64,000 nt of DNA from the sequence record OR525698.1; one strand, given 5' to 3'. Shown one piece after another: positions 1,370-53,278 of the stretch. The position numbers were made by a program, and so were the translations under genes. Each line of letters opens with the position of its first letter. Positions within the stretch are counted from its first letter, which is position 1. Source of the stretch: Escherichia phage vB-Eco-KMB43. The notes beneath the pieces are model-generated. The model saw only the letters and a list, made by a program, of their open reading frames with translations, ran no database searches and was not told the origin of the DNA.

Positions 1370-2854
1370 ATGCAAGATATTAAAATTCACTTTCTGAACT
1401 ATTCCCATGTTCAAATTGAATGTAGCGATTCAATTTTATTAGAAATGCGAGATTATTTTAGTTTTGAAGTCGAGGGAGCGCGGTTTCAAAAAAGATTTAA
1501 GTATGGTGGATGGGATGGGCGTATTCGTCTTTTAGACTACAACGGAAAGTTGCCTATCGGCCTAACTAAAACCGTGGGAATCTTCGCTAAAAATATGGGC
1601 TATAGCGTATGGGTAGATCCTCGCTTATTCGAAAAAGAACAAGTTACAGAAGAAGAAATTACAAAATGGTGTAATGACTTAGAATTATATTCCGGTGCTA
1701 ACAGGATCACCCCGCACTGGTATCAATCAAAGGCTGTCTTTGAAGGTATCCATCATAAACGCCGTATGTTAGTTTTGCCTACGTCCGCTGGTAAATCTGC
1801 GATTGCTTGTATGTTGTCTCGCTGGTACTTAGAGAACTACGAAGGGAAAGTGCTGATCATCGTTCCTACCACGTCGCTAGTGCTGCAAATGCGTGATGAC
1901 TTTGTTGATTATCGCCAGTTTCCTTATGAAGCAATTCATACTATCATGAGCGGTACTAGTAAACACGTAGGTGATCGCCTGATCGTTGTTAGTACGTGGC
2001 AATCAGCATGTAAACAGCCTCGTGAGTGGTTCCAACAATTCGGGATGGTTATTGTTGACGAATGTCACAAAGCCACTGCTAAAAACCTGCTAAACATCGT
2101 TACTGATATGGATCATTGCCAATTTAAGATCGGTATGACTGGTTCCCCTCGTGACGGGAAAGCTAACATGATGCAGTATGTCGGGCTTTTCGGTGATATT
2201 TCTAAGATCGTGAGTATTGACCGCCTGATGGAAGAAGGGCAGGTGACAAAACTGAAAATTAACTGTCTTTTCCTTCGTTATACCGATGAGGAATGTAGCG
2301 CGGTTAAGGGTAGAGAATATGCGGAAGAGATCAAGTATATTACGTCTAACCCACGACGAAATAAGTTTGCTTGTAATTTGGCGCTAAAACTCGCTAAGAA
2401 GGGCGAAAACGTATTCCTTATGTTCCGCAATACTAAGCACGGAAAACTTATGTATGACGCGTTACAGAAGGTACACGACAAGGTTTATTATATTGACGGT
2501 GGAGTTAAGACAGAAGAACGTGATGAATTTAAGAAATTAGCGGAAGGGGAAACCGGGATCATTTGCGTTGCATCCTATGGTGTGTTCTCTACTGGTGTTT
2601 CAATTAAGAATTTGCACCATGTTATTTTCGGTCATCCAGTGAAGGAATCAACTATCGTTCGTCAGAGTATCGGTCGTGCATTGCGTAAACATGGTTCTAA
2701 GGATATTGCAACGGTCTGGGATCTTATAGATCATCTGGCGGTGAAGACAAAGAGCAAGAATGCTAAGAAACAGTTTAGTCACCTTAATTATGCTCTTAAA
2801 CACGCGCTTTTGAGGATACAGCTTTACAATACCGATAAATTTGAGTATGCTTAA
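1370..2854 (+). CDS. uvsW: UvsW RNA-DNA/DNA helicase (SF2), C-terminus altered by 55 bp tandem duplication
   Basis: Strong similarity to T4 UvsW (MQDIKIHF..., Walker A LPTSAGKS, DECH box); late promoter TATAAATA upstream; stop codon created at duplication junction. Confidence 0.9.
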   Translation: MQDIKIHFLNYSHVQIECSDSILLEMRDYFSFEVEGARFQKRFKYGGWDGRIRLLDYNGKLPIGLTKTVGIFAKNMGYSVWVDPRLFEKEQVTEEEITKWCNDLELYSGANRITPHWYQSKAVFEGIHHKRRMLVLPTSAGKSAIACMLSRWYLENYEGKVLIIVPTTSLVLQMRDDFVDYRQFPYEAIHTIMSGTSKHVGDRLIVVSTWQSACKQPREWFQQFGMVIVDECHKATAKNLLNIVTDMDHCQFKIGMTGSPRDGKANMMQYVGLFGDISKIVSIDRLMEEGQVTKLKINCLFLRYTDEECSAVKGREYAEEIKYITSNPRRNKFACNLALKLAKKGENVFLMFRNTKHGKLMYDALQKVHDKVYYIDGGVKTEERDEFKKLAEGETGIICVASYGVFSTGVSIKNLHHVIFGHPVKESTIVRQSIGRALRKHGSKDIATVWDLIDHLAVKTKSKNAKKQFSHLNYALKHALLRIQLYNTDKFEYA

Positions 2855-2904
2855 ACACGCGCTTTTGAGGATACAGCTTTACAATACCGATAAATTTGAG
2901 TATG
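2795..2904 (+). repeat. perfect 55 bp direct tandem duplication (2 copies) at uvsW 3' end
   Basis: 2795-2849 identical to 2850-2904; junction creates GCT TAA stop. Confidence 0.95.
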
Positions 2905-2933
2905 TCACGAAAACCATCGAGATTTAATAAATA

Positions 2934-2956
2934 GGGGCTTTAATGCCCCTTTATTC
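2934..2956 (+). terminator. rho-independent terminator after uvsW
   Basis: Hairpin GGGGC-TTTAAT-GCCCC followed by TTTATT. Confidence 0.6.
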
Positions 2957-2970: not shown

Positions 2971-3207
2971 ATGATTAGCTTTAAACGTTTTTTGGTTGAG
3001 GCCGCTATTGACGGTTTCATGCGTAAGATTTATTCTTGTAATACTATCGAGGGATTAAATGAACTTGAGGCATATTATGAGAAGCGCAAGAAAGAAACAG
3101 AATTGAAACCTGCTGATGATATTTCGATCCGTGATGCCATCGCTGGACGCCGTAAGCAACTGGAAGCGGACAACGAGCCAGAAGATGAGCCGGAAGAGGA
3201 TTTTTAA
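2971..3207 (+). CDS. UvsW.1-like small acidic protein
   Basis: 78 aa ORF with GGAG RBS immediately downstream of uvsW terminator, same position as T4 uvsW.1. Confidence 0.5.
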   Translation: MISFKRFLVEAAIDGFMRKIYSCNTIEGLNELEAYYEKRKKETELKPADDISIRDAIAGRRKQLEADNEPEDEPEEDF

Positions 3208-6876: not shown

Positions 6877-8582
6877 TGACAGAAACTAAACCTATGTTAA
6901 AATTTGTTGTTCCTGTAAAAAAATTAGAGATAAACGGGAAACATATCAAGATCCCAAAAATGGGGATTAAGCAACATCGATTATTAAAAGATGTTCGTAG
7001 CTGTGATGAAACATTAAAGATTCTTCTTGATTCAATCTGTCCTGGGTTAAACGCTGCCGAGTCTGAATTGGTTATGCTTAACCTTTGTGCGTATGAAGAA
7101 TTGCAAAAACTCAATAATTTCTCTTCTCAGATGAATGAGAAATTACGTGGTTTTGGTGTTATGATGGAACGTAGATTTGGTGTTGTCAGTAAAATGGCTA
7201 GCGGTATTGGTGCGATTGAAGAAGCACTGAAAAAACCGGAACAACCGCAAACAATGCCATCACCTCAGCCAGTTTTGCCTACTGTACCGGAACAGCCTAA
7301 TAATGACAACTATCAAGGTCTTCCAAAGAAAAAACCAGATGTTGAGGAACGGAAGAAAAAGAACGCCGCAGATAAGCGCAATGCGGATTCTATGGAAAAT
7401 CTTCTTAAAGTTGTTCGTGGAGGATTTAAAGAAACCATAGGTATCTCTAATAAGGTCTTAGGGATGTTATTTAAGATCACCTTGACCGCTATGGCAGAAG
7501 CCGCAAAATGGGGCGCTATTTTGATGGGTATTGTTTTTGCCATTGATACCCTTATGATTCATTTCAGATATTGGAGTGATTTATTCGAAACAAAATTTGA
7601 TGAATTTATGGATAAAGCCGGAGAATGGGCTGGACCCATTAGTGATATTCTAACAACTATTCGTCAAGTTCGAGATTATTGGTCTAAAGGTGAATATGGA
7701 GAATTAATTAAATCTCTTGTTATGGGTATTGGTGATGCATTCTATAAAACCTTTATCCAACTTGATCGAATTATCACTACTGGTATTGCTAAAATTCTTC
7801 GCATGATCCCTGGTATGGGTGATTATGCCGATAAGTTAGAATATGGTGCTTTAAAATCTGCTGTCGCTCAAGGTTATACGCCAAATGAAAGAGAACTCGA
7901 ATTAATGGATAAGGTCGAGTCTGAACACGAAGAGGACAAATACGGGGAGCGTACTGGTTGGACCGGAAAAGCCCGTGATATTGGTGAGGCTATCGGTGAC
8001 TCCATTAAAGATAAAGTTAACGAGGGTCTTGTTAGTCTGGGTTGGAGAGATCAAAAGGATGTTGACGCAGAGAAGCGACAAGAAGAATTAAAGCGCGGAG
8101 AATATGAGTCTGTTTCTGCTGAACAACGATCTGCTAGTCGTAAACTTAGAATTAAAAGTGAGGGCGCGATCAACAATATTAATGAAGTTATGGAGAATTT
8201 GAGCGGTGACTATGACAAAGAAAGAATGGGAGAGTTGAAAAAGGATATTGATGTTTACCGTGAGCAAGTTCAAGATCCTACATTAGTTGAAAGTGATCGT
8301 TCTCAGTTAGAGCGTCTTATTGAAAAATTTGATGAGATGTATGCTGATAAAACTAAGGGTGTTGTGCAAACACAGCCGGTTCCTGCAACTGAAACGGAAA
8401 CAGCAAAACAAGCGGAACGTACTGAACAAATGCAGAAACAAGCTGCAATCCAGAAACAAACGACAAATCAGACCTCAAACGTAAATAATACACAAATTGT
8501 AACAAACAATAGAACTATTAAACAGGGTGCACCAACAACTAGAATTGATGCCCCCGGTACAATTAATATGGGGAACTTTTAA
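6876..8582 (+). CDS. 29: baseplate hub / tail tube length determinant, gp29-like (no separate gp28 ORF seen)
   Basis: 568 aa ORF with hydrophobic segment and coiled-coil-like regions at gene 29 position; start overlaps gp27 stop (TAATG). Confidence 0.6.
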   Translation: MTETKPMLKFVVPVKKLEINGKHIKIPKMGIKQHRLLKDVRSCDETLKILLDSICPGLNAAESELVMLNLCAYEELQKLNNFSSQMNEKLRGFGVMMERRFGVVSKMASGIGAIEEALKKPEQPQTMPSPQPVLPTVPEQPNNDNYQGLPKKKPDVEERKKKNAADKRNADSMENLLKVVRGGFKETIGISNKVLGMLFKITLTAMAEAAKWGAILMGIVFAIDTLMIHFRYWSDLFETKFDEFMDKAGEWAGPISDILTTIRQVRDYWSKGEYGELIKSLVMGIGDAFYKTFIQLDRIITTGIAKILRMIPGMGDYADKLEYGALKSAVAQGYTPNERELELMDKVESEHEEDKYGERTGWTGKARDIGEAIGDSIKDKVNEGLVSLGWRDQKDVDAEKRQEELKRGEYESVSAEQRSASRKLRIKSEGAINNINEVMENLSGDYDKERMGELKKDIDVYREQVQDPTLVESDRSQLERLIEKFDEMYADKTKGVVQTQPVPATETETAKQAERTEQMQKQAAIQKQTTNQTSNVNNTQIVTNNRTIKQGAPTTRIDAPGTINMGNF

Positions 8583-9640
8583 TGAAAATTAGTGTTATCA
8601 ATGATGCCGTTGATAGCTTTAAAGCGGGGGTTAAAACCTCCGCTGGTTTTACCTCAAAAAATAAAGGGAAAACATTAACCGCTCAATTCCCCGCTGAACG
8701 TGCTAGCGGTAATGATGCTAGCGGTTATTATATCAACGACTTATATAATAATGGTCTGTTATTCACTGCATACGATTACACCTCTCGTACTACTGGATCG
8801 CTGCGTGATTTCAGGAAAAAGAAAAATGTTGCTAGCGGTTTTGGTGGTAGCGTTAATATCGCTGGTTTTGATTTAAATTTGGGTGGGAGAAATGCTGCAT
8901 TTGACCGAGAGGCAATTGCTAATATTCTTCTTCCTCGTAGTCAATCTGACGTTGACGCTGCCAGCCATAAGTTTAATGATGTTGGTGAATCTGTTATTTC
9001 TCGCGGCGGTGGTACTTTAGGCGGTGCTCTTTCTAATATGGCATCTACTGCCGTTTTTGGTGGTATCGAAAGTATTACTGGTGGATACCTTGCCGATCAC
9101 GGTGAACAGATTTATAATACTGCGCGAAGCATGTATGCGGGTGCTGATGCACGAACTAAAAACTACGTATGGCATCTAACCCCACGTAGTATTGAAGACC
9201 TTCGCAATATTCTGATCATATACGAAACGTTTTTAGAATTGTCTTATGGTTCTAGTGGCATTTCCAGCACCGCAAAAGAATTAAAAGCGGAAGTTGATGC
9301 GTGGTATAAAAATACACTATTGAGAAAATCCACCCCAGAGGAAGCGAAGAGAAATGATACTCTGTTTGAAGGGATCACCGATTTTCTATCAAACGTAATT
9401 ACTGTATCTAACCCGACAATATGGATGATCTCTAACTTCGGCAAGCGTACATCGTTTGAAGGGCGTAGCGATGCATTTGGTCCCGCTCAGATCTCAAGTG
9501 TACGTCTGGACAAGTCGCCTGATGGTAAGTTTAATGGCCTTGCTATTTCTCCTAACTTGCCGAGTACCTTTGTTCTGGAAGTATCATTTAGAGAGATCTT
9601 GACACTTTCCCGTGGTACTATATTTGGGAGTGCGGCATAA
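8582..9640 (+). CDS. 48: baseplate tail tube cap gp48
   Basis: 352 aa ORF at conserved position, start overlaps upstream stop. Confidence 0.8.
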   Translation: MKISVINDAVDSFKAGVKTSAGFTSKNKGKTLTAQFPAERASGNDASGYYINDLYNNGLLFTAYDYTSRTTGSLRDFRKKKNVASGFGGSVNIAGFDLNLGGRNAAFDREAIANILLPRSQSDVDAASHKFNDVGESVISRGGGTLGGALSNMASTAVFGGIESITGGYLADHGEQIYNTARSMYAGADARTKNYVWHLTPRSIEDLRNILIIYETFLELSYGSSGISSTAKELKAEVDAWYKNTLLRKSTPEEAKRNDTLFEGITDFLSNVITVSNPTIWMISNFGKRTSFEGRSDAFGPAQISSVRLDKSPDGKFNGLAISPNLPSTFVLEVSFREILTLSRGTIFGSAA

Positions 9641-10089
9641 TGTTTGATTTAAATGACTTTAACGAACAAGCCGCTAACCTTGACTTTCAGCGATCGAACT
9701 TATTCAGCGTGGCATTTGCCACCACTCCAAGTAATAAGACACAAGCGATCCTAGAAAGTATGGGTGGTGCGGTATATGATATTATACCAAATGCATTAAA
9801 TGACTATTTCGGGATTACTCGTGGTGATTATACTGACGCATTAACAAATCTTGCTGTGCAGGGTGTTAGGCGTGCTGTTGATTCATCTGGTGTCAAAAAG
9901 TATCTTTTAGGTGCAATGTCATCCCGCGTAGTTCAATCTCTTCTGGGGCAATTTGATGTTGGTACATATGCGCTTGACTGGTTCAATCTGGCATATAAGA
10001 CAAGCGGTCTTCTGGTGTATGCTGTTAAGGTTCCAGAAAACAGATTGAATTATGAAATGGACCGTAACCACAATGCGCCAAACATTCGA
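9640..10089 (+). CDS. 54: baseplate tail tube initiator gp54, N-terminal segment (residues 1-150)
   Basis: Collinear with T4 gp54 up to ...PENRLNYEMDRNHNAPNIR; reading frame then diverges and stops at 10170. Confidence 0.8.
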
Positions 10090-10466
10090 TTAATGGTAAG
10101 TGTCTGGAAGAAAAAGATGGTCTTAAGCTGTCTGATGTGTATATTTGTACAGAGACTGAATTTACTTTAAATGGTAAAGTCTTTAAATTTAAAAATCCAA
10201 TGTATACTTCTGACCCCATTATCGATGACGCTGATTTCTTGAGTCATCATTATCACGATCCTAGTGTAGACTTCCATGATTTCCCAGCTTTTATTATGGA
10301 TTGGGCTACAGGATTAAGAAAAACTATTGCACTGGATACACCGGAAGGTACTATCTATGGTGGAATTAACATATTGGATCGCCTATCATGAATGACGCAT
10401 TAACATCATTTCGCGGGATGCGCAAGGAAGCGGAAGAAAACCCGATTGATAAACTTAACAAATTAG
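10090..10466 (+). other. intervening sequence interrupting gene 54 (candidate group I intron or other excised element)
   Basis: Removing 377 nt (or 380 nt, 10087-10466) joins NIR to INGRDFDPLVLSFRMD in frame, matching the contiguous T4 gp54 sequence; 3' end is G. Confidence 0.6.
10137..10391 (+). CDS. open reading frame inside the gene 54 intervening sequence (~100 codons open, function unknown)
   Basis: Frame open from 10083 to TGA at 10391 in AT-rich DNA; weak RBS; same frame as gp54 C-terminal segment. Confidence 0.3.
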   Translation: MYICTETEFTLNGKVFKFKNPMYTSDPIIDDADFLSHHYHDPSVDFHDFPAFIMDWATGLRKTIALDTPEGTIYGGINILDRLS

Positions 10467-10949
10467 ATAAACGGACGTGATTTCGATCCGCTTGTATTGA
10501 GCTTTAGAATGGACTCTAGCGCATCAAACTATCGAGCAATGCAGGATTGGGTTAACTCAGTAGAAGACCCCGTTACAGGGCTTCGTGCGCTTCCTGTTGA
10601 CGTTGAAGCAGATATTCAGGTTAACTTACATAACCGAATGGGAGTTCCTCACACGATCATGATGTTTAATGGTTGTGTTCCTGTTGGTGTGAGTGCACCG
10701 GAATTAACCTATGAAAATAACAACGAAATAACAACATTCGATGTTACTTTCGCATATCGTTCTATGCAAACTGGTGCTGTAGGAGAGCAAGCCGCGCGAG
10801 AATGGATTGAGGATAAGGCAATAAACGCAATAACAAACACTTTCGGCAATAATTTACTTGATAGTGGGTTATCTGCTGCTGGTAATGCTTTATCGCGTCT
10901 AAATGGCGTTGGTGGGCGTGTGGTGAATACTGTCACTAACTGGTTCTGA
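10467..10949 (+). CDS. 54: baseplate tail tube initiator gp54, C-terminal segment
   Basis: INGRDFDPLVLSFRMDSSASNYRAMQDWVNSV... collinear with T4 gp54 C-terminal half; no good own start or RBS. Confidence 0.8.
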   Translation: MNGRDFDPLVLSFRMDSSASNYRAMQDWVNSVEDPVTGLRALPVDVEADIQVNLHNRMGVPHTIMMFNGCVPVGVSAPELTYENNNEITTFDVTFAYRSMQTGAVGEQAAREWIEDKAINAITNTFGNNLLDSGLSAAGNALSRLNGVGGRVVNTVTNWF

Positions 10950-14949: not shown

Positions 14950-14981
14950 GTTTGATTCCCCTTTCGTTTCGGTATGTGTGT

Positions 14982-15011
14982 ATTATAGGGGATCACCGAT
15001 CCCCCTGTCAA
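14982..15011 (-). promoter_or_regulatory. PeSL early promoter (TTGACA-GGGGGATCGGTGATCCCC-TATAAT)
   Basis: Consensus -35/-10 with GC stem-loop in spacer. Confidence 0.6.
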
Positions 15012-15022
15012 CAACTTTTTAG

Positions 15023-15538
15023 TTATTTTTTTAATTGCTCATCTTGCAATAGGGCAATCACATGCTGGCGATGTTCTTCCGATTGAGGCACACCGAAAAA
15101 GTTTGTTTTGTAGAAATACTCTAATCGGTCTTCTCGTGTGCTCTCTTCCATCATGATCGCGGGTAGTCCGAGATTTCGGAAACGTCGCTTTTCTGCTGGC
15201 GTAAAATCACTGTAATACAACATAGAATCATCATTACCAGCAATGCTAAACTCATCCTTCATAAAGGAGAATATTGCGTTTAAACGCTGTTTACCGTCCA
15301 CGATTTCGATCTCATAGCGAGAGCCATCATCAATCTTAGCCATTGCGATAGCACCGACCGGAAAATCATTAATCAGGTTTTCGATAAACATACGTTTGTT
15401 TTCGGTGTCCCATACCAAAGGACGCTGATAATCTGGGTTCATGTTGATATAGCCATCTTCTAACCATGCTTCGTAAACAGAGATGACAAAGTTTTTAGTA
15501 TTGGTATAGTAACGGCGTTTAGGCGTTAAACGGTTCAT
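15023..15538 (-). CDS. DUF262 / ParB-like nuclease domain protein
   Basis: Motifs DYQRPLVWD and VDGKQRL (DGQQR-type); start at ATG 15538 with AGGAG RBS. Confidence 0.65.
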   Translation of the reverse strand: MNRLTPKRRYYTNTKNFVISVYEAWLEDGYINMNPDYQRPLVWDTENKRMFIENLINDFPVGAIAMAKIDDGSRYEIEIVDGKQRLNAIFSFMKDEFSIAGNDDSMLYYSDFTPAEKRRFRNLGLPAIMMEESTREDRLEYFYKTNFFGVPQSEEHRQHVIALLQDEQLKK

Positions 15539-15539
15539 G

Positions 15540-15872
15540 TTATAGTCTCCTGAATGGATCATCACGTAAATCAATATCTTTTAAGAACTCATCCCATGAA
15601 TGGCGGATATTGTTCTTAATTCTCCAGATAAGCGCAGGGATTGAACGCTCTCCCATCTGGAAGTATGGATCATATGATCCGTATGCCCAATATGCTACTA
15701 CAATTCCACAATCAGCGCAATAGTATTCTATTTCACTTGCTGGCGACCAAAGTCCATCAATATGATCGGTGATCTTGCTTTCGATGTTATGGCTATGACA
15801 ATCAGGGCAACGGATGCAATGACCTTGTTTATCGTAATTTGACGTTAGCGAATACTTAAACAATCTCATCAT
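15540..15872 (-). CDS. zinc-ribbon protein (CxxC...CxxC)
   Basis: CIRCPDCHSH ... YYCADCG cysteine pairs; coupled to flanking genes. Confidence 0.5.
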   Translation of the reverse strand: MMRLFKYSLTSNYDKQGHCIRCPDCHSHNIESKITDHIDGLWSPASEIEYYCADCGIVVAYWAYGSYDPYFQMGERSIPALIWRIKNNIRHSWDEFLKDIDLRDDPFRRL

Positions 15873-16585
15873 AGATCCTTATTTGCTTCAAATACTGCCT
15901 TTGCGAATCCTCGCGGGGTAAGTGACCTGATAGTCTTTGTTTTCGTTCCTTTCCCGCCTAGCTTAGAATGCTGTTTACTGTACCCTTTATTAATCTGCAA
16001 AGGTTTCTTTTCTGGCATTATAAAGCCTTGTCCGGTCCATAAGCAAGTCTTTTTCGGGTACATATCACGGGCGGCGATATACTCAGGAAAAGTAGGATGT
16101 TTATCATCTTCCGGCAAATAACCGCCATATTCCCACGGATGGAACATATAATCAGGCTTACGCCACATGCTAGAGATAACGCTTACAGGATTCTCTATCA
16201 TGTAGGGAACTCCTAGCCATTCACCCAAATAAGCGGTTATTTTAGCTGCCCGTACATCATGAACTTGAATCAATGGTCCTTGCTCTCGTTTCTTTCGTTC
16301 AAAGTGTGCAGCGCCACTAACAGCTAAATTGGTGCACGGTGGGAATGCAAAGATAATATCCGGTTTCCCCCATTCAAGGTCCATTGCTCTTTCCAGCCAG
16401 TTCAAATCAATCCAGGTGTTTACATAGGTAATGTTTGGATGTTCAAATCTGGTATTATACTTTTTGTATGTACCGTGGTCGGCGTCATCCGCATTAAAGC
16501 AGACTACCTTATGACCTGCTTTAGCCCATTCTAGCCCCATTATCCCCGATCCGTCAAAGTTACAGAATATTAATTTTTGTTTCAT
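15869..16585 (-). CDS. minimal C5-cytosine methyltransferase-like protein (238 aa, no obvious target recognition domain)
   Basis: Motif I-like FDGSGIMG, motif IV AFPPCTNLAVSG, motif VI ENP, motif X-like LTPRG. Confidence 0.55.
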   Translation of the reverse strand: MKQKLIFCNFDGSGIMGLEWAKAGHKVVCFNADDADHGTYKKYNTRFEHPNITYVNTWIDLNWLERAMDLEWGKPDIIFAFPPCTNLAVSGAAHFERKKREQGPLIQVHDVRAAKITAYLGEWLGVPYMIENPVSVISSMWRKPDYMFHPWEYGGYLPEDDKHPTFPEYIAARDMYPKKTCLWTGQGFIMPEKKPLQINKGYSKQHSKLGGKGTKTKTIRSLTPRGFAKAVFEANKDL

Positions 16586-16827
16586 ATACGCCCCTTTAAT
16601 CCAACACAGATTTTAGAAGGTTCTTTGCCGTGCCACATTAAGTAAAGTCCATTAATGCGGCCTTGTTTTGTATATGATTCTTTTCTGATCTTCTTATAGT
16701 GTCGTGCTTCCTCAGCCGATTGTTTAGAATACCAATCATAAAGGAAGAGGCACAAAGGCCAACCATTAGCGGCCTTAATGCAGTTATTAAGAAATTCCTT
16801 ATTGCGTTTAATTAATTTTCTTTTCAC
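16582..16827 (-). CDS. hypothetical protein (81 aa)
   Basis: ORF overlapping neighbours by 4 nt within operon. Confidence 0.5.
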   Translation of the reverse strand: MKRKLIKRNKEFLNNCIKAANGWPLCLFLYDWYSKQSAEEARHYKKIRKESYTKQGRINGLYLMWHGKEPSKICVGLKGRI

Positions 16828-17075
16828 GCTGCCCCCATTGGTTTGATAGTAACAGAATCTAAAAGACCTTTGTTAGCCAGTTCGCGGCAAGTTTTCAGAT
16901 CCGCAACTTCCCAGCCAGCCGCAATCAGGTTATCGATGAGGCTGTTAGCAACTTCTTCGCTCATGAAAGAGCACTGTTTGCCGATGGTGTAGCGTACACG
17001 CTGTAATTTCAGTTTACGGAAGCCTTTAACGTTCAGGTCTTTAGCGATTTTCTTTGCGGTTTCGATGTTAGCCAT
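16824..17075 (-). CDS. hypothetical protein (83 aa), first gene of the PeSL-driven operon
   Basis: AGGAGA RBS, PeSL promoter at 17115-17144. Confidence 0.5.
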   Translation of the reverse strand: MANIETAKKIAKDLNVKGFRKLKLQRVRYTIGKQCSFMSEEVANSLIDNLIAAGWEVADLKTCRELANKGLLDSVTIKPMGAA

Positions 17076-17114
17076 TGTTTGATTCTCCTAAGTGGTATCT
17101 AGTCTTGATGGTTG

Positions 17115-17144
17115 TATTGTAGGGGAGTTATCCTCCCCTGTCAA
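17115..17144 (-). promoter_or_regulatory. PeSL early promoter (stem GGGGAGG/CCTCCCC)
   Basis: TTGACA with GC palindrome; drives operon 17075 to 15023. Confidence 0.5.
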
Positions 17145-17158
17145 CACTTTTTATAAAA

Positions 17159-17326
17159 TTATTTGTTAATTTCCGGTGCGTTGCTAGGATAGTAACCTTC
17201 TTTAACTCCGAGGTATTTCGCAACCATCCCTACAATCTTCTGTGCTACTACAATGTCAAATTTCAGATAATCTTCGCCGTGGGTTTCAATGATATATGCT
17301 TCACATGCTGCTTTAGTCTCGAACAT
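17159..17326 (-). CDS. hypothetical small protein (55 aa), paralog of 20780-20947
   Basis: MFETKAACEAY...NAPEINK; near-identical copy elsewhere; PeSL upstream. Confidence 0.45.
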   Translation of the reverse strand: MFETKAACEAYIIETHGEDYLKFDIVVAQKIVGMVAKYLGVKEGYYPSNAPEINK

Positions 17327-17359
17327 TTTGATTCTCCTATTTCGTTTCGGTATGTGTGT

Positions 17360-17388
17360 ATTATAGGGGATCTCCCGATCCCCGTCAA
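17360..17388 (-). promoter_or_regulatory. PeSL early promoter (TTGACG-GGGATCGGGAGATCCCC-TATAAT)
   Basis: Consensus hexamers with stem-loop spacer. Confidence 0.6.
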
Positions 17389-17404
17389 CAACTTTTTTTT
17401 AAAA

Positions 17405-17686
17405 TTATTCGTGATTAGTTTCGATGTTGTGCATTTTGCACCAGTTCAGCCAATCACCCAGATCCTGATAGTTAATGCTTTTATCTGCTGCCATCGTTTT
17501 TGTCTTGATACCCATATGTGCGTTATGAGTAAGCATTTTTACAGTGAACTCAATTTTATCACCTTTAGCTTTAACATCAACCAGTTTGGTCCACTGGCTA
17601 CCAGCGCCGCGAATGTTCATACCAACGATGTTTCCGATGTATGCTTCTTTGTTTTTCAGGATTTCGGTTGCTTTGATGAATTTCAT
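17405..17686 (-). CDS. hypothetical protein (93 aa)
   Basis: ORF after PeSL promoter with GGAGAATCAA leader. Confidence 0.5.
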   Translation of the reverse strand: MKFIKATEILKNKEAYIGNIVGMNIRGAGSQWTKLVDVKAKGDKIEFTVKMLTHNAHMGIKTKTMAADKSINYQDLGDWLNWCKMHNIETNHE

Positions 17687-17719
17687 TTTTGATTCTCCAG
17701 TTCGTTTCGGTATGTGTGT

Positions 17720-17748
17720 ATTATGCTATTTTCTTACTTTGGTGTCAA
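17720..17748 (-). promoter_or_regulatory. early promoter (TTGACA-17-CATAAT), PeSL-related without clear stem
   Basis: Hexamers at correct spacing plus shared CACACATACCGAAACGAA leader. Confidence 0.5.
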
Positions 17749-17757
17749 CAACTTTTT

Positions 17758-18027
17758 TTAGATATTTTCAGAAATAAATTTTAAAACTTGACGTAAATGT
17801 TTCTCATCTTTGATAGTCGCCGGAAGTTCTTCTTTTACTTCCTGTGCAAGATAGATATTTCCGTTCCAAGTGAAAGATCCGTCTTCGTTTACGCGATAGC
17901 TGAACATCCACTCGCAATCATTTTCGATTTCATATACACACAGAAGAGTGTAATCTTCAAAGCTATTGATTTCAAGGTCGAAGCCGTGACGTTTTGCAAA
18001 GTTGGTAGTGGTTTTAGTCAGTGCCAT
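17758..18027 (-). CDS. hypothetical protein (89 aa)
   Basis: ORF after PeSL promoter. Confidence 0.5.
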   Translation of the reverse strand: MALTKTTTNFAKRHGFDLEINSFEDYTLLCVYEIENDCEWMFSYRVNEDGSFTWNGNIYLAQEVKEELPATIKDEKHLRQVLKFISENI

Positions 18028-18068
18028 TGTTTGATTCTCCTAAGTGGTATCTCGTCTTGATGGGTGTA

Positions 18069-18096
18069 TTATGCTATAGGCGTGATCTGGTGTCAA
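18069..18096 (-). promoter_or_regulatory. early promoter (TTGACA ... CATAAT)
   Basis: Hexamers upstream of 17758-18027 ORF. Confidence 0.5.
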
Positions 18097-18344
18097 TGCT
18101 TTTTTTAATTTTATGCAATAAAAAGACGACACTAAGGTCGGCACATTTTAAAAATTCTTGCCATATATGCAAGCCTCATAATCTAGAGGATGACCGCCAA
18201 TCCTACCCGGCTTAATATTCCAACCGCATCGATATTTGCTGACCATGCTAACAGTTTCGGTTCTTAGAGCATTTTCTTTGCAAATCATACCCCATAAATT
18301 CTTTTCTATAAGGACAGTCCGCTTTGCAAGTTGGCGGTTCTACG

Positions 18345-18536
18345 TCATTTAGCGGGTCGGAAGCAGTTGGCTTTATTATCAATTCTTTGTTTGCAATAAT
18401 CATAAGCACATCCCATTGAAGACAATTTAACATCTTCGCAATAAGTGTTGAATCCGTCAAACACGGTCACTTCGTATTTGACTCCATCAGCGATAGCTTT
18501 TACTTTATACCATCCATGCTTGTATAAAATCTTCAT
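18345..18536 (-). CDS. hypothetical Cys-containing protein (63 aa)
   Basis: GAGGAAAT RBS plus ATG right after PeSL. Confidence 0.45.
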   Translation of the reverse strand: MKILYKHGWYKVKAIADGVKYEVTVFDGFNTYCEDVKLSSMGCAYDYCKQRIDNKANCFRPAK

Positions 18537-18568
18537 CTTTATTTCCTCAATCTCGTTTCGATGGGTGT

Positions 18569-18598
18569 ATTATGCTATAGGCTAGACCAGGTTGTCAA
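18569..18598 (-). promoter_or_regulatory. early promoter (TTGACA ... CATAAT)
   Basis: Hexamers upstream of 18345-18536 ORF. Confidence 0.5.
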
Positions 18599-18621
18599 CA
18601 ACTTTTTTAATTTTTTGGAAA

Positions 18622-18647
18622 TAAAAAAGCCGACGCTAAGGTCGGCT
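18622..18647 (-). terminator. terminator
   Basis: Hairpin AGCCGAC-GCTAAG-GTCGGCT with A-run. Confidence 0.55.
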
Positions 18648-18654
18648 AATAAAA

Positions 18655-18963
18655 TCATTTAGACAAATAATCATTCTGTGCAATCCGGTCGGCGTATGCT
18701 GGTGTTACGTCAATCGCCAACACTTTAACGCGTGCTTTCTTGCGACCTGGGTTTTCTCGTAACCAGTGCTCATGACCGTGCACATTTTTATATTTTGATG
18801 CGGTTTCGAAGGTACGGATCGGACCTGGATAATCTGCGTAAAGGATCTCTAGGTCTTCGGTGATGTAAAAATATACATCATAATTACTGTTCTCTAGTTT
18901 AAGCAGAGAATTGCGAAATTGTGGTAAATTCTCGCGGGTAAATTCAACTACAAGATTTTTCAT
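18655..18963 (-). CDS. HxHW-motif small protein family member
   Basis: Shares H.HW and LAIDVTP motifs with five paralogs; start at ATG 18963 with GAGGA RBS. Confidence 0.5.
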   Translation of the reverse strand: MKNLVVEFTRENLPQFRNSLLKLENSNYDVYFYITEDLEILYADYPGPIRTFETASKYKNVHGHEHWLRENPGRKKARVKVLAIDVTPAYADRIAQNDYLSK

Positions 18964-18988
18964 AGTGATATCCTCATTCAGATAGATT

Positions 18989-19007
18989 AAAAGGGGCTTA
19001 ACGCCCC
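18989..19007 (-). terminator. terminator (GGGGC-TTAAC-GCCCC hairpin family)
   Basis: Same hairpin as the 14461 copy. Confidence 0.55.
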
Positions 19008-19012
19008 GTATA

Positions 19013-19300
19013 TTAAAACAGTCCTTCCTGTACACCGTAGTAGAGTTCGTCACTGATAATTTCATTAATGCGACGGTGTGCATATTCCTGATTTGCGAAG
19101 TTGTCAGCAAGTTCTACTTTAGTTTCGCCGTCATGAGTCCATTTAGTGATAACTTTACCATCTGCAAATTTGAAGTTGAACTCTTTAGCTACTGCATCGC
19201 GTACCAGACGTGCGAACTTGTTGTTACGGATTGCATTATCGGTTTCGTGTGCAGCGTGAGCAAATTTGTTAACTTTCAGAGTGATAGTAATGTATGCCAT
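19013..19300 (-). CDS. hypothetical protein (95 aa), AKEFN-motif pair with 22182-22493
   Basis: ORF after PeSL; shared motif RDAVAKEFNFK. Confidence 0.5.
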   Translation of the reverse strand: MAYITITLKVNKFAHAAHETDNAIRNNKFARLVRDAVAKEFNFKFADGKVITKWTHDGETKVELADNFANQEYAHRRINEIISDELYYGVQEGLF

Positions 19301-19346
19301 AATTTGATTCTCCTAGTTAGAAAGTGTATCTCGTTTCGATGGGTGT

Positions 19347-19375
19347 ATTATGCTATACACCCGATCCATTGTCAA
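19347..19375 (-). promoter_or_regulatory. early promoter (TTGACA-17-CATAAT)
   Basis: Hexamers upstream of 19013-19300 ORF. Confidence 0.5.
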
Positions 19376-19707
19376 CGCCTTTTTATAAAATAATTTTCGA
19401 TATCTTTATGATGTTTTTCTCGTGCTTGGTCTGCCTCGGCTGGCGATACGTTGGAAGCGATAATCTTCACTACTGTTGCACCTTTTTCGGTGTCCGACAC
19501 CCAATGATTATGGAAACCGCTATTATTAAACACTTGATAAGAAAATGATTTAATGCTAGGGAAATTATATGTGTAATAGCGTACCTTTAATTCTGAATCT
19601 ATGTATAGATAGATCACCGCACCTAGATAGACCGTCTCACTCGTTCCATCAACTAACAGTAGAGTATTTCGCAATTCTTCTAAATTGTCTTTTGTAAGAA
19701 AAATCAT
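19372..19707 (-). CDS. HxHW-motif small protein family member
   Basis: FHNHW ... IIASNVSPAEADQAREKHH. Confidence 0.5.
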   Translation of the reverse strand: MIFLTKDNLEELRNTLLLVDGTSETVYLGAVIYLYIDSELKVRYYTYNFPSIKSFSYQVFNNSGFHNHWVSDTEKGATVVKIIASNVSPAEADQAREKHHKDIENYFIKRR

Positions 19708-19721
19708 AGTATAATCCTCAA

Positions 19722-20045
19722 TTAAACCAAATTAACTTTGGTGTTGTGGTGTTTTTCTCGTGCTTCGTCCGCTTCTTCCGGTGTCACGTTACGAGCGACT
19801 ACAATAACACTTGCTGCCTCTCCGTGATGAGAGATCTCTACCCAATGGTTATGATTTGTGAATCCGTGTTTTATTGCGTAAGCGAACGGCTTGGACGTCC
19901 AGTAGTTACTATAATATCGTACATTTAGATCGCTATCAATGTACAAATATGTGCTGTCGTTTACATTGCCACTAACAACAAAAACAAGACAATTGCGAAG
20001 ATCTGGCAATATTTTGTCTGTCAATTTTATAATGTGACTGTTCAT
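19722..20045 (-). CDS. HxHW-motif small protein family member
   Basis: NHNHW ... VVARNVTPEEADEAREKHH; ATG at 20045. Confidence 0.5.
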   Translation of the reverse strand: MNSHIIKLTDKILPDLRNCLVFVVSGNVNDSTYLYIDSDLNVRYYSNYWTSKPFAYAIKHGFTNHNHWVEISHHGEAASVIVVARNVTPEEADEAREKHHNTKVNLV

Positions 20046-20047
20046 AA

Positions 20048-20257
20048 TTAACACCACTCAAGAGTTTTTGAAAACACATCTATCCATTGTTGAGTATATG
20101 CAGTTTCTTTCCACGAGACAATACCAGTAGAATAATGATTCTTGTTTCCAGAAAAGGACGGGCATTTTGATGCATCTTCCATCATCTTTTCGGCGAACTC
20201 TGGTTCGTATACTCGCAAGATCTGTTGATATGCTTTGTAGTCTTTAAATTTGCTCAT
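20048..20257 (-). CDS. hypothetical protein (69 aa)
   Basis: ORF in overlapping operon. Confidence 0.45.
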   Translation of the reverse strand: MSKFKDYKAYQQILRVYEPEFAEKMMEDASKCPSFSGNKNHYSTGIVSWKETAYTQQWIDVFSKTLEWC

Positions 20258-20522
20258 AATCGTTAACTACCTTATCAGCTTCTTTTATTGTTTTTACATC
20301 AACTGCGATAACCCGTAAAGGTTCGTCGTGGTTCCACCAATGATCGTGAATATCAGCTTGTGATTTATCACCAAAGGAATCACGAATATCATTTTTACAT
20401 TTATAGCTAATGTGACCGTCATAGTCAACATAAAGGTAATTATCGAAAATCGGCGTTTTTAAGATCATGCCGAAAAATCTTTCTTTGTGTGTCTTATCCA
20501 GTGTTGCAGTAATTCGCATCAT
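20244..20522 (-). CDS. HxHW-motif small protein family member
   Basis: HDHWW ... IAVDVKTIKEADK. Confidence 0.5.
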   Translation of the reverse strand: MMRITATLDKTHKERFFGMILKTPIFDNYLYVDYDGHISYKCKNDIRDSFGDKSQADIHDHWWNHDEPLRVIAVDVKTIKEADKVVNDYEQI

Positions 20523-20534
20523 AATATATTCCTC

Positions 20535-20714
20535 TTAGAAAGGGATGGTCATTTCTTGAGCTTGTACATTCTCGTTAGGATTAAACTTCATCCAACCGAT
20601 ATTGTCTACCAGCATATGCACATTTTTATCATATCCTACGTGAGTAGTCAATACTAAATGTGCTTTACCTTCAACGATGATTTCCATGTACTTCTGAACT
20701 TCGATAGCTTTCAT
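20535..20714 (-). CDS. hypothetical small protein (59 aa)
   Basis: ATG 20714 behind PeSL and GGAGAATCAA leader. Confidence 0.4.
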   Translation of the reverse strand: MKAIEVQKYMEIIVEGKAHLVLTTHVGYDKNVHMLVDNIGWMKFNPNENVQAQEMTIPF

Positions 20715-20747
20715 TTTTGATTCTCCGTTTGTTGTCTTGATGGGAGT

Positions 20748-20776
20748 ATATTACTACTCCCTTTAATCATTGTCAA
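20748..20776 (-). promoter_or_regulatory. PeSL early promoter (stem GGGAGTA/TACTCCC)
   Basis: TTGACA plus palindrome GGGAGTATATTACTACTCCC. Confidence 0.5.
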
Positions 20777-20779
20777 CTA

Positions 20780-20947
20780 TTATTTGTTAATTTCCGGTGC
20801 GTTGCTCGGATAGTAACCTTCTTTAACACCCAGATATTTTGCGACCATTCCGGTGATCTTCTGTGCTACTACAATGTCAAATTTCAGGTAGTCTTCACCG
20901 TGGTTTGCTACAATGTATGCTTCGCATTCTGCTTTAGTCTGGAACAT
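20780..20947 (-). CDS. hypothetical small protein (55 aa), paralog of 17159-17326
   Basis: MFQTKAECEAY...NAPEINK; PeSL upstream. Confidence 0.45.
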   Translation of the reverse strand: MFQTKAECEAYIVANHGEDYLKFDIVVAQKITGMVAKYLGVKEGYYPSNAPEINK

Positions 20948-20981
20948 TTTTGATTCTCCTATATCTCGTTGGTATGTGTGT

Positions 20982-21010
20982 AGTATAGGGGATCACCGAT
21001 CCCCTGTCAA
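20982..21010 (-). promoter_or_regulatory. PeSL early promoter (TTGACA-GGGGATCGGTGATCCCC-TATACT)
   Basis: Same stem-loop spacer as the 14982 copy. Confidence 0.6.
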
Positions 21011-21017
21011 CAACTTT

Positions 21018-21326
21018 TTATTCTTCATCTTCATCTTTATCTTGATATGCGTACGTCATAAATTTGTCTGCTACTTTGTCCGCGTTTTCAGGTTCTACGT
21101 CTGACGCTAGGACAACAGCTAGTTCTGTTTTGTCGTTTCCATCATACCAATGATTATGAGTGTCGTTTTCTTCGATATAAAACGAATCATTTGGAGTTGT
21201 GCGACAATATACGTCTAAATTCCCATCGATATAAAAGATCCAATCCGAATACAAAATGATTGTTTTAGCAAGATTTTTATTGCCTTCAACGAAAGGTTCG
21301 GCTACAAACAAATTAGTATGTTCCAT
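21018..21326 (-). CDS. HxHW-motif small protein family member
   Basis: THNHW ... VVLASDVEPENADK; start ATG 21326 with GAGGAAAAA RBS. Confidence 0.5.
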   Translation of the reverse strand: MEHTNLFVAEPFVEGNKNLAKTIILYSDWIFYIDGNLDVYCRTTPNDSFYIEENDTHNHWYDGNDKTELAVVLASDVEPENADKVADKFMTYAYQDKDEDEE

Positions 21327-21343
21327 AGTATTTTTCCTCAAAA

Positions 21344-21535
21344 TTATACAGCTTCGTAAACTTCCCAATGTCCAACACCAGCACGCTTAACGAAAAGGTT
21401 TTCTTTTATGTTATTCATAAACGTCTGGATGGATTTAATTCGTTTGGAAGGTTTCCAGTCTTCGTTGGTATTGCGTCGATACATCATAACATTACCAGAC
21501 CGCTTATATTCAGCAACCATTTTAAGACCACACAT
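21344..21535 (-). CDS. hypothetical protein (63 aa)
   Basis: ORF track; promoter-like motif upstream. Confidence 0.4.
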   Translation of the reverse strand: MCGLKMVAEYKRSGNVMMYRRNTNEDWKPSKRIKSIQTFMNNIKENLFVKRAGVGHWEVYEAV

Positions 21536-21580
21536 AATATTATCCTCAATTTGTGGGAGAGTATTACCCTCCCGATTATT

Positions 21581-21612
21581 GTTATACTACATTACGCAAA
21601 ATGGCGTGTCAA
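21581..21612 (-). promoter_or_regulatory. early promoter-like element with nearby GC palindrome
   Basis: TTGACA present; -10 weak; palindrome GGGAG...CTCCC displaced. Confidence 0.3.
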
Positions 21613-21912
21613 TGCTTCTTTTGCTGTTCCGCTAAGATTCTCTATCTCTCCTGGCATAACATCAACCGCCAGAACTTCTACAACATCCTCTGATCCTAAC
21701 CAGTGAGTATGACCTTTGTAGAACTTGATAATCAGACTACCTTCCTCATCCCATTTAACGCTATCGCTAGCCCACCACACATCACCGTCGATAAAGTTGA
21801 TGTAAAGCACACTACGCCACATTGAATTAATTACTTTCAATACTGCGCCTTTCATATCTTCCACGGTGTGGTCTTCCATTTTGAAGACCTCGCCTACCTG
21901 AACTTTTGCCAT
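21592..21912 (-). CDS. HxHW-motif small protein family member
   Basis: GHTHW ... LAVDVMPGE; RBS GAGAGGTGA. Confidence 0.5.
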   Translation of the reverse strand: MAKVQVGEVFKMEDHTVEDMKGAVLKVINSMWRSVLYINFIDGDVWWASDSVKWDEEGSLIIKFYKGHTHWLGSEDVVEVLAVDVMPGEIENLSGTAKEALTRHFA

Positions 21913-21929
21913 TTAGTCACCTCTCTTTA

Positions 21930-22109
21930 TTACATAACAATTACGCCAGCCGTTGAAAGTTGATGTTTCAACTGAGCATTTTCTGCTACTGTCAAATCAA
22001 TGATTTCTTGTGACGCTGCAATCATATAGCCATTGGTGATATTGTTTTGCATCAGTTCAATGGTTTCTTCGTTGTAGCGGATTTTAGCGATGATTTCGTT
22101 GAAGTTCAT
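21930..22109 (-). CDS. hypothetical small protein (59 aa)
   Basis: ATG 22109 behind PeSL; MNFNEIIAKIRY... Confidence 0.4.
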   Translation of the reverse strand: MNFNEIIAKIRYNEETIELMQNNITNGYMIAASQEIIDLTVAENAQLKHQLSTAGVIVM

Positions 22110-22143
22110 AATTGATTCTCCTAGTTCGTTTCGGTATGTGTGT

Positions 22144-22173
22144 ATTATAGGGGAGTTTAACCTCCCCTGTCAA
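22144..22173 (-). promoter_or_regulatory. PeSL early promoter (TTGACA-GGGGAGGTTAAACTCCCC-TATAAT)
   Basis: Consensus hexamers with stem-loop spacer. Confidence 0.6.
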
Positions 22174-22181
22174 CAACTTTT

Positions 22182-22493
22182 TTAAAGTTTTTCCATGATA
22201 ACGGTCATAATTACATCTTCTGCGCGAGCGGTCAGATTATCAGCGTCAGCATGTGGGCGGTTGGTTGTTACAGAGATAACACCGTTGCGCACTGGTTTGA
22301 TATTGATATCAAGATGATCCGCGAAACGTTCGCCAGTTACAGAATGAATTTTGGTGTTAAATTCTTTTGCCAGTGCCTTGCGAACTTCACGAATCAGGAT
22401 AGCGTTTTTCAGTTGGTTCTCCGCGCTCATGGTCTTCTGAGTGTTCATGGTTCCGTCGAAGTCAATCATTGGCAGCGTTACGATGTATTTCAT
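22182..22493 (-). CDS. hypothetical protein (103 aa), AKEFN-motif pair with 19013-19300
   Basis: Shared motif REVRKALAKEFNTK; PeSL upstream. Confidence 0.5.
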   Translation of the reverse strand: MKYIVTLPMIDFDGTMNTQKTMSAENQLKNAILIREVRKALAKEFNTKIHSVTGERFADHLDINIKPVRNGVISVTTNRPHADADNLTARAEDVIMTVIMEKL

Positions 22494-22537
22494 TTTTGAT
22501 TCTCCGTTTAAGAAAGTGTGTTTCGTTTTGATGTGTG

Positions 22538-22567
22538 TAGTATAGGGGATACGTGATCCCCTGTCAA
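22538..22567 (-). promoter_or_regulatory. PeSL early promoter (TTGACA-GGGGATCACGTATCCCC-TATACT)
   Basis: Consensus -35 with stem-loop spacer. Confidence 0.6.
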
Positions 22568-22580
22568 CAACTTTTTTGAA

Positions 22581-39539: not shown

Positions 39540-39570
39540 AATATAATCCTCTCTTTGTTTCGATGTGTGT

Positions 39571-39598
39571 ATTATACATTACCACATCAGCATGTCAA
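39571..39598 (-). promoter_or_regulatory. early promoter (TTGACA ... TATAAT)
   Basis: Hexamers upstream of 39210-39539 ORF. Confidence 0.5.
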
Positions 39599-39629
39599 CA
39601 CCTTTTTCATAAAATTTTAGGCAATAAAA

Positions 39630-39660: not shown

Positions 39661-40684
39661 TTACAGATTCAGAAGTGAGTCCAGGTCATCCAGATCAGAA
39701 GCGGAGGAAGTACCGCCACCCAGATCCAGCGATGCCATCAGGTCATCAGCGGAAGAATCTAACGCCGTGCTAGCTGCGTTAATACCAACTACAGTGCTAG
39801 CTGCGGTAATACCAGAATCGAATGCATTCATCTGTGCGTCAAAATCGTCAAGCTGGCTGTTAATCGCTGCCGCAGCACTGGAAGCCGCAGCGCCAGCTAC
39901 CATAGAAACGCCCATAGTTTTCTTAAATTTGGTTTCCAGTTCATCGAACGGTTTAAACTGGCTAGGCGCTACAATCTCACCCAGATCAACCATGTTTTCC
40001 ATCAGATATTTCTGATATGCTTCGTCTTCAATTTTCGGAAGCTGTGATTGCTGCATGAAACGAGAATCATCATAGTTCTGGTGTTTATCAACCTTCTTAG
40101 CTTTCAGGAGGAAGTTAGCACCGGAGAACACACAAGTTACATCTACCGGAACTTCGCCCATGTCGGTATTCACGTTCACCATTGCAACGATCTTATCATA
40201 AATTTTCTGACCGAAGCGGAATTTGAATACCTTACCTTCATTTTCTGGTGCTTGAGGATCTTTCAGTACCAGAATATTTGCGTAGTAAGACGCTTTACGC
40301 TTAATCAGTTGCCATTCGGTTTTATCGGTATTGTACAGGTCTTTTTCGTTAATATATTTGCACACAGGGCAAGAATCAAAATCACCGTGGGTGCTGGAGC
40401 AGTTTTCCCAATACCATTTGCCATTAACTTTGAAGGAATGGTTTACCAGTTTCACAATCGGCAGACCGTCTTCTGTCTTAGACGGCAGGAAGCGAATCAG
40501 GGCTTCACCGTTACCTGCTGCATCAGTCTTAATCTTCCACTCTTTCGGATCTTCTTTGGAGAAACCGTTGCCACCTTTCAGTGTTAATCTTCCACTCTTT
40601 CGGATCTTCTTTGGAGAAACCGTTGCCACCTTTCAGTGAGGCCAGTTGAGCTTGCAGTTTGGAAGAATCTTGGCGTTTAAACAT
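39661..40684 (-). CDS. 32: single-stranded DNA-binding protein gp32, reading frame disrupted by 55 bp tandem duplication
   Basis: ATG at 40684 ([23 protein letters not shown]...) matches T4 gp32 N-terminus; frameshift inside the duplication gives a stop; remainder of gp32 is in the ORF-track frame 39661-40629. Confidence 0.85.
40529..40638 (+). repeat. perfect 55 bp direct tandem duplication (2 copies) inside gene 32 5' region
   Basis: 40529-40583 identical to 40584-40638; 55 is not a multiple of 3, so gene 32 is frameshifted. Confidence 0.95.
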
Positions 40685-40720
40685 ATTCACTATTCCTTCT
40701 TTTGATTAATTTACTAGACT

Positions 40721-40748
40721 ATTATACAGATTTAAATTTACTTGTCAA
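40721..40748 (-). promoter_or_regulatory. sigma70-type early promoter for gene 32 (TTGACA-16-TATAAT)
   Basis: Minus strand reads TTGACAAGTAAATTTAAATCTGTATAAT upstream of gene 32 ATG. Confidence 0.55.
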
Positions 40749-41425
40749 CTATTTGTTTCGGCTTTTAATTGAGATATTTCTTTACACTCTTTAACTACTT
40801 TAACAAATAATGCTCTTGCTTTTGCGGCGTCAATAACAAGTAGTTTCTTGTACGCCTTCATTTTAACACTATAAGTTTGCCAAATCAAGTCTTTGGCTAC
40901 CTTGTCGTGTTCGTCGATTATATTTAGAAAGCTATCTAACAACATAAACGACTCAAACGATATAATCCGATTTTGCAGTAGTTTAAAGATACCGCTTGTT
41001 TCGGTTGTGGGATTGTATGTAATTAGCTCTTTAAGAGTAACCCCGCGTTTCTCGGAGAAGTATACCAGACTTTTAATGTCATCGTCAAATCGTGTTGCTG
41101 CATCGGTTATCTTTCCTATGTATTCCATATAAAAGCCGTATGCGTCAACATCAGTGATTTCACCTACCCATGCATCGGTATTAGCTACCAGATTGCTTAG
41201 GAATAGGAAGTATAATTCTCTTAGATTGTACTTTTCCGCTAATTTTGCGAAATAATACTTATCTCTGCGTTTATTGAATGCGGCATCAGACAACCGCATC
41301 CTCCAATTGTATTTTACGCAATCATAACGCCCGTTCATGTGAGCTTTCATCATGCAATATAACATATACACAGATTTAGCATTAATTCGCATATCTGGAT
41401 CTGGAGGAAGACGGTTTCTGATCAT
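40745..41425 (-). CDS. 59: helicase loader gp59
   Basis: 226 aa, similarity to T4 gp59 (KSVY.LY, HMNG.YD, YNW.MR.SDAA). Confidence 0.8.
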   Translation of the reverse strand: MIRNRLPPDPDMRINAKSVYMLYCMMKAHMNGRYDCVKYNWRMRLSDAAFNKRRDKYYFAKLAEKYNLRELYFLFLSNLVANTDAWVGEITDVDAYGFYMEYIGKITDAATRFDDDIKSLVYFSEKRGVTLKELITYNPTTETSGIFKLLQNRIISFESFMLLDSFLNIIDEHDKVAKDLIWQTYSVKMKAYKKLLVIDAAKARALFVKVVKECKEISQLKAETNS

Positions 41426-53254: not shown

Positions 53255-53260
53255 CAACAA

Positions 53261-53278
53261 GGGGGCATTGCCCCCTTT
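53261..53278 (+). terminator. hairpin after gene 37 (terminator-like)
   Basis: GGGGGC-ATT-GCCCCC followed by TTTGG. Confidence 0.4.

Follow-up and report, generated by a model that had tools for sequence, protein, structure and literature searches.

What ends the uvsW gene early in this phage sequence, and does the cause lie in the phage or in the file? In the stretch of DNA analyzed here (hereafter the window, 64 kb), the last 20 codons of uvsW hold a 55-bp segment twice in tandem. Positions 2795-2849 are identical to 2850-2904, as the initial annotation had stated; direct reading with exact string comparison and Tandem Repeats Finder (2795-2904, period 55, 2.0 copies, 100% match, 0 indels) both give this result. 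The bases that flank the two copies are T and G on the left and C and T on the right; because they differ on both sides, the boundaries are unambiguous and microhomology is absent. Chance cannot account for an exact match of 55 bp. The length of 55 is not divisible by three, so that the frame shifts and GCT TAA (2849-2854) arises at the junction; in the file, UvsW starts at the ATG at 1370, measures 494 aa, has its last 7 residues replaced, and ends in ...KFEYA. When one copy is removed, the reading runs to 500 aa and ends in ...KFEYVTKTIEI, which is both the length and the C-terminus of RB49 UvsW; translation against RB49 thus bears out the two protein ends first proposed. The features of the locus are as follows.

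1370..2854, plus strand: uvsW as read in the list of open reading frames, 494 aa, ending ...KFEYA, with a TAA supplied by the junction.
2795..2849, plus strand: first copy of the 55-bp unit, putative end of an upstream contig; relatives have one copy.
2850..2904, plus strand: second copy of the unit, putative start of a downstream contig, with the premature TAA at 2852-2854.
2905..2927, plus strand: orphaned natural 3' end of uvsW (...VTKTIEI), with the natural stop at 2925-2927.
2933..2950, plus strand: terminator-like hairpin 3' of uvsW, located by a consensus scan, annotated as a terminator in related records and spared by the duplication.
2971..3207, plus strand: uvsW.1, intact, 78 aa (Pfam UvsW-1, E=1e-21; RB49 annotation).

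The identity of the affected gene as a clear UvsW orthologue is secure: it has the Pfam domains UvsW_N, ResIII, DEAD, and Helicase_C (all above cut-offs), matches the structure of T4 UvsW (2OCA, E=1e-194, residues 3-493), and is syntenic with uvsW and uvsW.1 of RB49. Set against T4 UvsW/UvsW.1, the window gene has the same domains and the same downstream uvsW.1, and the change in the file is confined to its last 7 residues. Relatives vary at the 3' end of the gene as well. A hypervariable patch at 2803-2846, inside the duplicated unit, holds 14 differences in ~45 bp and falls into two allele classes separated by 4 amino-acid changes, with the window, LF73P4, and Makalu in one class and RB49 and most other relatives in the other. 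The patch nearly coincides with the duplicated unit, and its flanks are nearly identical between the classes.

The window belongs to an RB49-like T-even phage of Escherichia coli (Krischvirus). Its identity to ~60 records, among them RB49, JSE, LF73P4, and the Makalu phages, is 95-99%, and it is collinear with RB49 from inh/uvsW through rIIB; the nearest phage record is LF73P4 (~98-99% identity), and none is identical. Open reading frames of at least 120 aa are full length except at gene 32 and at the gp28/gp29/gp54 lesion described below. Because gene-breaking is limited to discrete lesions while the other reading frames are intact, general low sequence quality is not the cause. The variable stretches of the window amount to ordinary mosaicism. 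For example, a segment of ~625 bp (19416-20043) is missing from RB49 and LF73P4 and is contiguous only in JSE among phage records (98.1%); it is ordinary mosaic content in a region of small reading frames. The distal tail-fibre gene (932 aa) and the next reading frame (260 aa), at 50456-54073, are strongly diverged from RB49, with 36-68% amino-acid identity in pieces, and an exact look-up in 153 billion gene positions on record matched neither. The receptor-binding module of this strain appears to be unrepresented in the collections searched.

The uvsW duplication has a twin in the same window, as the initial annotation had noticed. Positions 40529-40583, which lie 37,734 bp from the first duplication, are identical to 40584-40638 by exact string comparison, and here too the flanking bases differ on both sides. 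The second duplication falls within gene 32, which encodes the single-stranded DNA-binding protein on the minus strand. It causes a frameshift at about codon 33, with a stop after 51 codons, and the RB49 gene 32 product accordingly falls in two pieces on the window in a tblastn search. Coordinate arithmetic shows that with one copy removed the gene measures 969 nt, or 322 codons plus a stop, which is the RB49 length.

40529..40583, plus strand: first copy of the gene 32 unit, inside gene 32 (minus strand); single and invariant in 11 relatives.
40584..40638, plus strand: second copy of the unit, followed by an A/C polymorphic site at 40639 (A in the window).
40529..40684, minus strand: 5' fragment of gene 32, 51 codons, with its stop at 40529-40531; no Pfam match.
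39661..40583, minus strand: remainder of gene 32, its start codon cut off by the +55 frameshift (Pfam gp32, E=4e-51).

A nearby TCAGT...TCAGT pair is present at the gene 32 site, with the junction lying outside the pair, and a search for RNA families around this duplication gave no match. In RB49, a 1.4-kb gene annotated as an endonuclease (RB49p240, 39931-41363) adjoins the 3' end of gene 32; it is absent from the window (~39546-39619). In a relative, OR352938.1, a GIY-YIG Seg-like gene lies between uvsW and inh. With RB49p240 beside gene 32 and the GIY-YIG gene beside uvsW, both duplicated loci therefore adjoin sites of mobile endonuclease genes.

The two duplications stand alone in the window and are absent from its relatives. 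A scan of the whole 64-kb window for exact tandem duplications with periods from 8 to 2000 returned only these two, both of 55 bp, so that no further tandem repeat of that period is present. The comparison with related genomes, which covered ~60 phage records and 7 further contigs, found neither junction. At uvsW, 1101 query bases align with ~1046 bases of the listed related records, as expected of a single copy, with the exception of G37-3; at gene 32, 1201 query bases align with 1146 record bases, again a single copy. Likewise, 70-mers centered on the junctions align as two permuted pieces on 55-61 bases of these records and never contiguously. The 7 contigs, 4 of which are Logan assemblies of raw runs, are Krischvirus contigs with an Inh protein identical to that of the window, and all of them encode a 500-aa UvsW in a single-copy alignment. 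The Inh protein of the window is widespread, but it was found only on contigs with a single-copy uvsW. Neither junction had an exact match in IMG/VR, in JGI metagenomes, or in GTDB genomes; the units themselves occur in 0 and 1 contigs of IMG/VR.

One reading of these facts is biological: replication slippage, illegitimate recombination, or aberrant double-strand-break repair in a mixed infection would have produced genuine mutations, and UvsW would really lack its 7 C-terminal residues. Tandem duplications do arise in T-even phages. The exception among the relatives, vB_EcoM_G37-3 (MK327941.1), has a tandem duplication of its own inside uvsW (154-535, ~190 bp, 98.5%), either genuine or an assembly error, and its authors annotated the gene as a disrupted feature, "similar to helicase; UvsW", and not as a CDS. 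The loss of 7 C-terminal residues could also be tolerated, given that the alignment with 2OCA reaches residue 493. Like the repeats in the window, the G37-3 duplication is a head-to-tail direct repeat in a coding region that changes the frame; however, it is ~190 bp long and imperfect (98.5%), whereas the window has two exact repeats of the same length with no microhomology beside them, one of which inactivates gene 32. Gene 32 is essential in T4, and the N-terminal domain of gp32, which the second duplication cuts off, is needed there for cooperative DNA binding. In addition, the mutational reading calls for two independent events of equal length and zero divergence, which is improbable, with no microhomology at either boundary and no relative that carries either product. 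That the two duplications share a common, non-independent origin, as the initial annotation proposed, is supported by their equal and exact 55-bp lengths.

Other repeats in the window are of a different kind. A scan for exact direct and inverted repeats of at least 20 bp across the 64-kb window found none longer than 33 bp besides the two duplications. Dispersed intergenic repeats, exact over 20-33 bp, lie between small early reading frames at 14960-22580 and 58150-59470; examples are TTCGTTTCGGTATGTGTGTATTATAGGGGA, followed by a GATCCCC hairpin, and TGTCAACAACTTTTT. These may be akin to the promoter-stem-loop cassettes described for RB49. The nearest relative, LF73P4 (OZ035795.1), is rearranged relative to both the window and RB49, with three large blocks inverted or moved. 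The block boundaries lie near 37609-37690, 56743-56851, 83256-83313, and 141390-141499, and the breaks fall within dispersed intergenic repeats; an exact 55-bp core is held in common at one boundary and a 110-bp stretch of 95% identity at another. When the LF73P4 order was tested as a set of k-mer-overlapping contigs, the exact 55-bp core was found to sit inside a dispersed intergenic repeat. The rearrangement could be a mis-assembly via repeats or genuine repeat-mediated recombination.

Two equal, exact, and microhomology-free repeats of 55 bp point to a fixed word length, and 55 is the usual final k of SPAdes and metaSPAdes. Overlaps of this kind have been described in phage genomes. The ends of a SPAdes contig of a T4-like phage overlapped by 55 bp and needed trimming (PMC8483715), another phage was joined from seven SPAdes contigs via 55-bp overlaps (PMC12697093), and SPAdes overlaps of 127 bp have been removed as artefacts (PMC5923482); the lengths of terminal repeats show peaks at 55, 77, and 99 bp. 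We consider it probable that the duplications in the window are untrimmed contig overlaps of this type (k=55) and not a feature of the phage. Neighboring contigs from a de Bruijn graph assembler whose final k is 55 would share exactly one 55-mer, and so would both ends of a phage genome that assembles as a circle. The graph would have branched where the reads held a second allele, which would be T/C behind the unit in uvsW and A/C behind that in gene 32; the final 55-mer in common would thus close one contig and open the next. Concatenation of the pieces with the overlap untrimmed would then yield two exact 55-bp tandem duplications. Four elements of this account are our inference: which assembler was used, what k it had, that the reads contained a minor allele, and that the join went untrimmed. 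At both sites, the repeat length equals an assembler k, identity is 100%, the boundaries are sharp, and relatives lack the repeat. Known k-mer overlap artefacts (SPAdes k=55, 77, 99, 127) resemble the window in being exact repeats of length k that ignore the reading frame and sit at branch points; however, the repeat is usually split over the two ends of a contig, whereas in the window the copies are adjacent and internal, in two places. Adjacent internal copies would arise only if the overlap was left untrimmed when pieces were concatenated or a circle was re-opened.

An assembly-graph origin makes a prediction, which we fixed before looking: the unit should be the last 55-mer common with a variant, so that the next base is polymorphic. 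The next base proved polymorphic after both units. At 2905, the window has T, whereas Makalu_002, JK32, and Whisky have C; Makalu_002 matches the window over all 55 bases of the unit. At 40639, the window has A and 10 of the 11 relatives have C, all of them with the whole preceding 55-mer; no other position varies within 118 bp. Forward branch points make up about 2.2-2.6% of the positions in the two regions. The joint chance that both units lie at branch points is 5.6e-4 for the same direction and 2.5e-3 for either direction, figures that come from panels of 13 relatives (uvsW) and 11 relatives (gene 32) serving as a proxy for the real read set and that are somewhat flattered by the enlargement of the uvsW panel with records picked for the unit allele. 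As judged from these alignments, branch-point placement favors a real assembly graph over randomly placed edits, and it suggests that a second allele was present in the sequenced sample, whether from a mixed lysate, from carry-over, or from cross-contamination. On the mutational reading, the same placement has another meaning, as both sites adjoin allele boundaries that may be recombination joints.

The allele involved at uvsW can be narrowed down. An RB49-like second allele was rejected as the cause of the break, since the hypervariable patch lies inside the unit and does not border it; a Makalu-like allele can explain the break. We also considered a chimeric join in which the nearest relative switches at 2850, and rejected it: the SNP profiles show ordinary mosaicism with no clean switch.

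Several points count against a k=55 join. First, a simple SNP bubble would open a second branch node on the right, yet the 55-mer at that node is not duplicated, so that the model needs the minor path to be a dead-end tip. Second, the window contains a third lesion that lies outside the mechanism.

7092..10472, plus strand: rearrangement unique to the window, by local BLAST against RB49, LF73P4, and the 7 contigs.

A piece of 382-383 bp, comprising the end of gp28 and the start of gp29, has moved ~3 kb downstream to 10090-10471, inside gp54. The adjoining 158 bp of gp29 are lost, as are 4-5 bp (ATTAC) at the insertion site, and gp28, gp29, and gp54 are each split. All 54 of 54 related records have the canonical order, with 542 bp between the halves of the 7092 junction. 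The junctions of this lesion show no 55-bp overlap, and its breakpoints lie off polymorphic sites; it follows that a k-mer join does not explain it, and that it must have arisen separately, for example when sequences were joined or edited by hand or by a script. Since gene 32 is frameshifted and gp28, gp29, and gp54 are broken, the sequence as written cannot be a viable genome. In other words, the three lesions are incompatible with viability and belong to the file, on an otherwise natural genome. This weighs further against genuine mutation, because the third lesion destroys three baseplate and tail-tube genes and a plaque-forming phage cannot carry these changes; we regard that reading as very improbable.

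The third lesion gives more weight to a reading in which editing or construction in silico (a script, simulated structural variants, or manual cut-and-paste) made all three lesions. Each is discrete, clean, gene-breaking, and unique to the window in an otherwise intact genome. The third is a cut-and-paste that lacks an overlap signature and is not readily made by an assembler, and the equal lengths of the duplications look like the product of a fixed parameter. Exact look-ups in 153 billion gene positions did not find the truncated UvsW (494 and 499 aa) or the gp28-gp29 fusion (568 aa), so that the aberrant products are as absent from that collection as are the tail-fibre proteins of the strain. 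However, editing at random would land on k=55 branch points at both sites with a chance of only ~6e-4 to 2.5e-3, the length of 55 is already explained by assembler defaults, and the third lesion is messy (542 bp out, 382-383 bp back, 158 bp lost, and a target loss of 4-5 bp). We consider construction in silico unlikely, but by no means negligible.

The initial annotation had also drawn attention to the sequence at which the units begin. It read both as starting with TTAA; this is exact for the gene 32 unit, whereas the uvsW unit begins CTTAA, with TTAA offset by one base. The moved gp28/gp29 piece starts with TTAA as well. Two starts would have any one 4-mer in common, give or take one base, with P ~0.014; with the third lesion included, the figure falls to ~5e-4. 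For the two units, with the motif unspecified beforehand, the coincidence is modest, and the k-mer model must treat the TTAA starts as chance. No TTAA-specific mechanism, such as a restriction site or a transposon target, was found that gives a 55-bp duplication, and we know of no process that links TTAA to one. Together with the third lesion and the need for a dead-end tip, the TTAA starts keep construction in silico alive as a rival to the untrimmed join.

Computational steps other than contig joining have to be considered too: an insertion made during polishing or local reassembly, a merge of assemblies, or an untrimmed re-opened circular contig, with the 55 coming from another tool. Exactness, uniqueness, and lethality also fit such causes, and the adjacent polymorphic sites fit a polisher that misbehaves where reads disagree. 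However, exactly 55 bp twice indicates a fixed word length and not local realignment. SPAdes overlaps of 55 bp are on record, but our search turned up no polisher or merger described as leaving a mark of 55 bases; this source is, in our estimation, improbable. Artefacts of construction or editing other than a k=55 join, taken together, make up a minority possibility of some substance. Of the three origins initially offered for the duplications, the artefactual one is thus favored and deliberate construction stands as a rival, whereas a shared mutational mechanism fares poorly, with gene 32 frameshifted, no relative carrying either duplication, and no microhomology at the boundaries.

Could a phage live with such inserts? 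Gene 60 of T4, where ribosomes bypass a coding gap of 50 nt, offers a parallel, as it too has an insert of ~50 nt of non-coding sequence in an essential T-even gene. In the window, a hop of 55 nt between identical codons would restore the wild-type product, and the uvsW stop lies at or near the junction. The window differs from gene 60 in that its inserts copy adjacent coding sequence and are not a dedicated gap, and in that no relative keeps them. By inspection, we rejected programmed bypass: in uvsW, GCT separates the candidate take-off codon TAT from TAA, and in gene 32 the stop comes 55 nt later, so that neither stop adjoins a codon with a matched landing codon that restores the frame. The duplications would be present in packaged DNA if a novel form of break-and-copy acted at TTAA sites beside allele boundaries in a mixed infection, and if complementation by a co-infecting genome or a 55-nt ribosomal hop made them tolerable; we consider this combination far-fetched.

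With an untrimmed k=55 contig overlap as the preferred explanation, the real phage most likely has one copy at each site, a UvsW of 500 aa, and an intact gp32 of 322 aa. The truncation of the UvsW C-terminus reported initially therefore holds for the file and, in all likelihood, not for the phage protein. As to the biology of UvsW and gp32, the finding adds nothing new, and its value lies in quality control. It provides a reusable diagnostic: when a tandem repeat is exact and as long as an assembler k, and the base that follows it varies among close relatives, an untrimmed contig join is indicated. If the sequence were annotated as it stands, uvsW would be 6 residues short, gene 32 would appear as two fragments or as a pseudogene, gp28, gp29, and gp54 would be mis-called, and a false loss of genes in Krischvirus could be reported.
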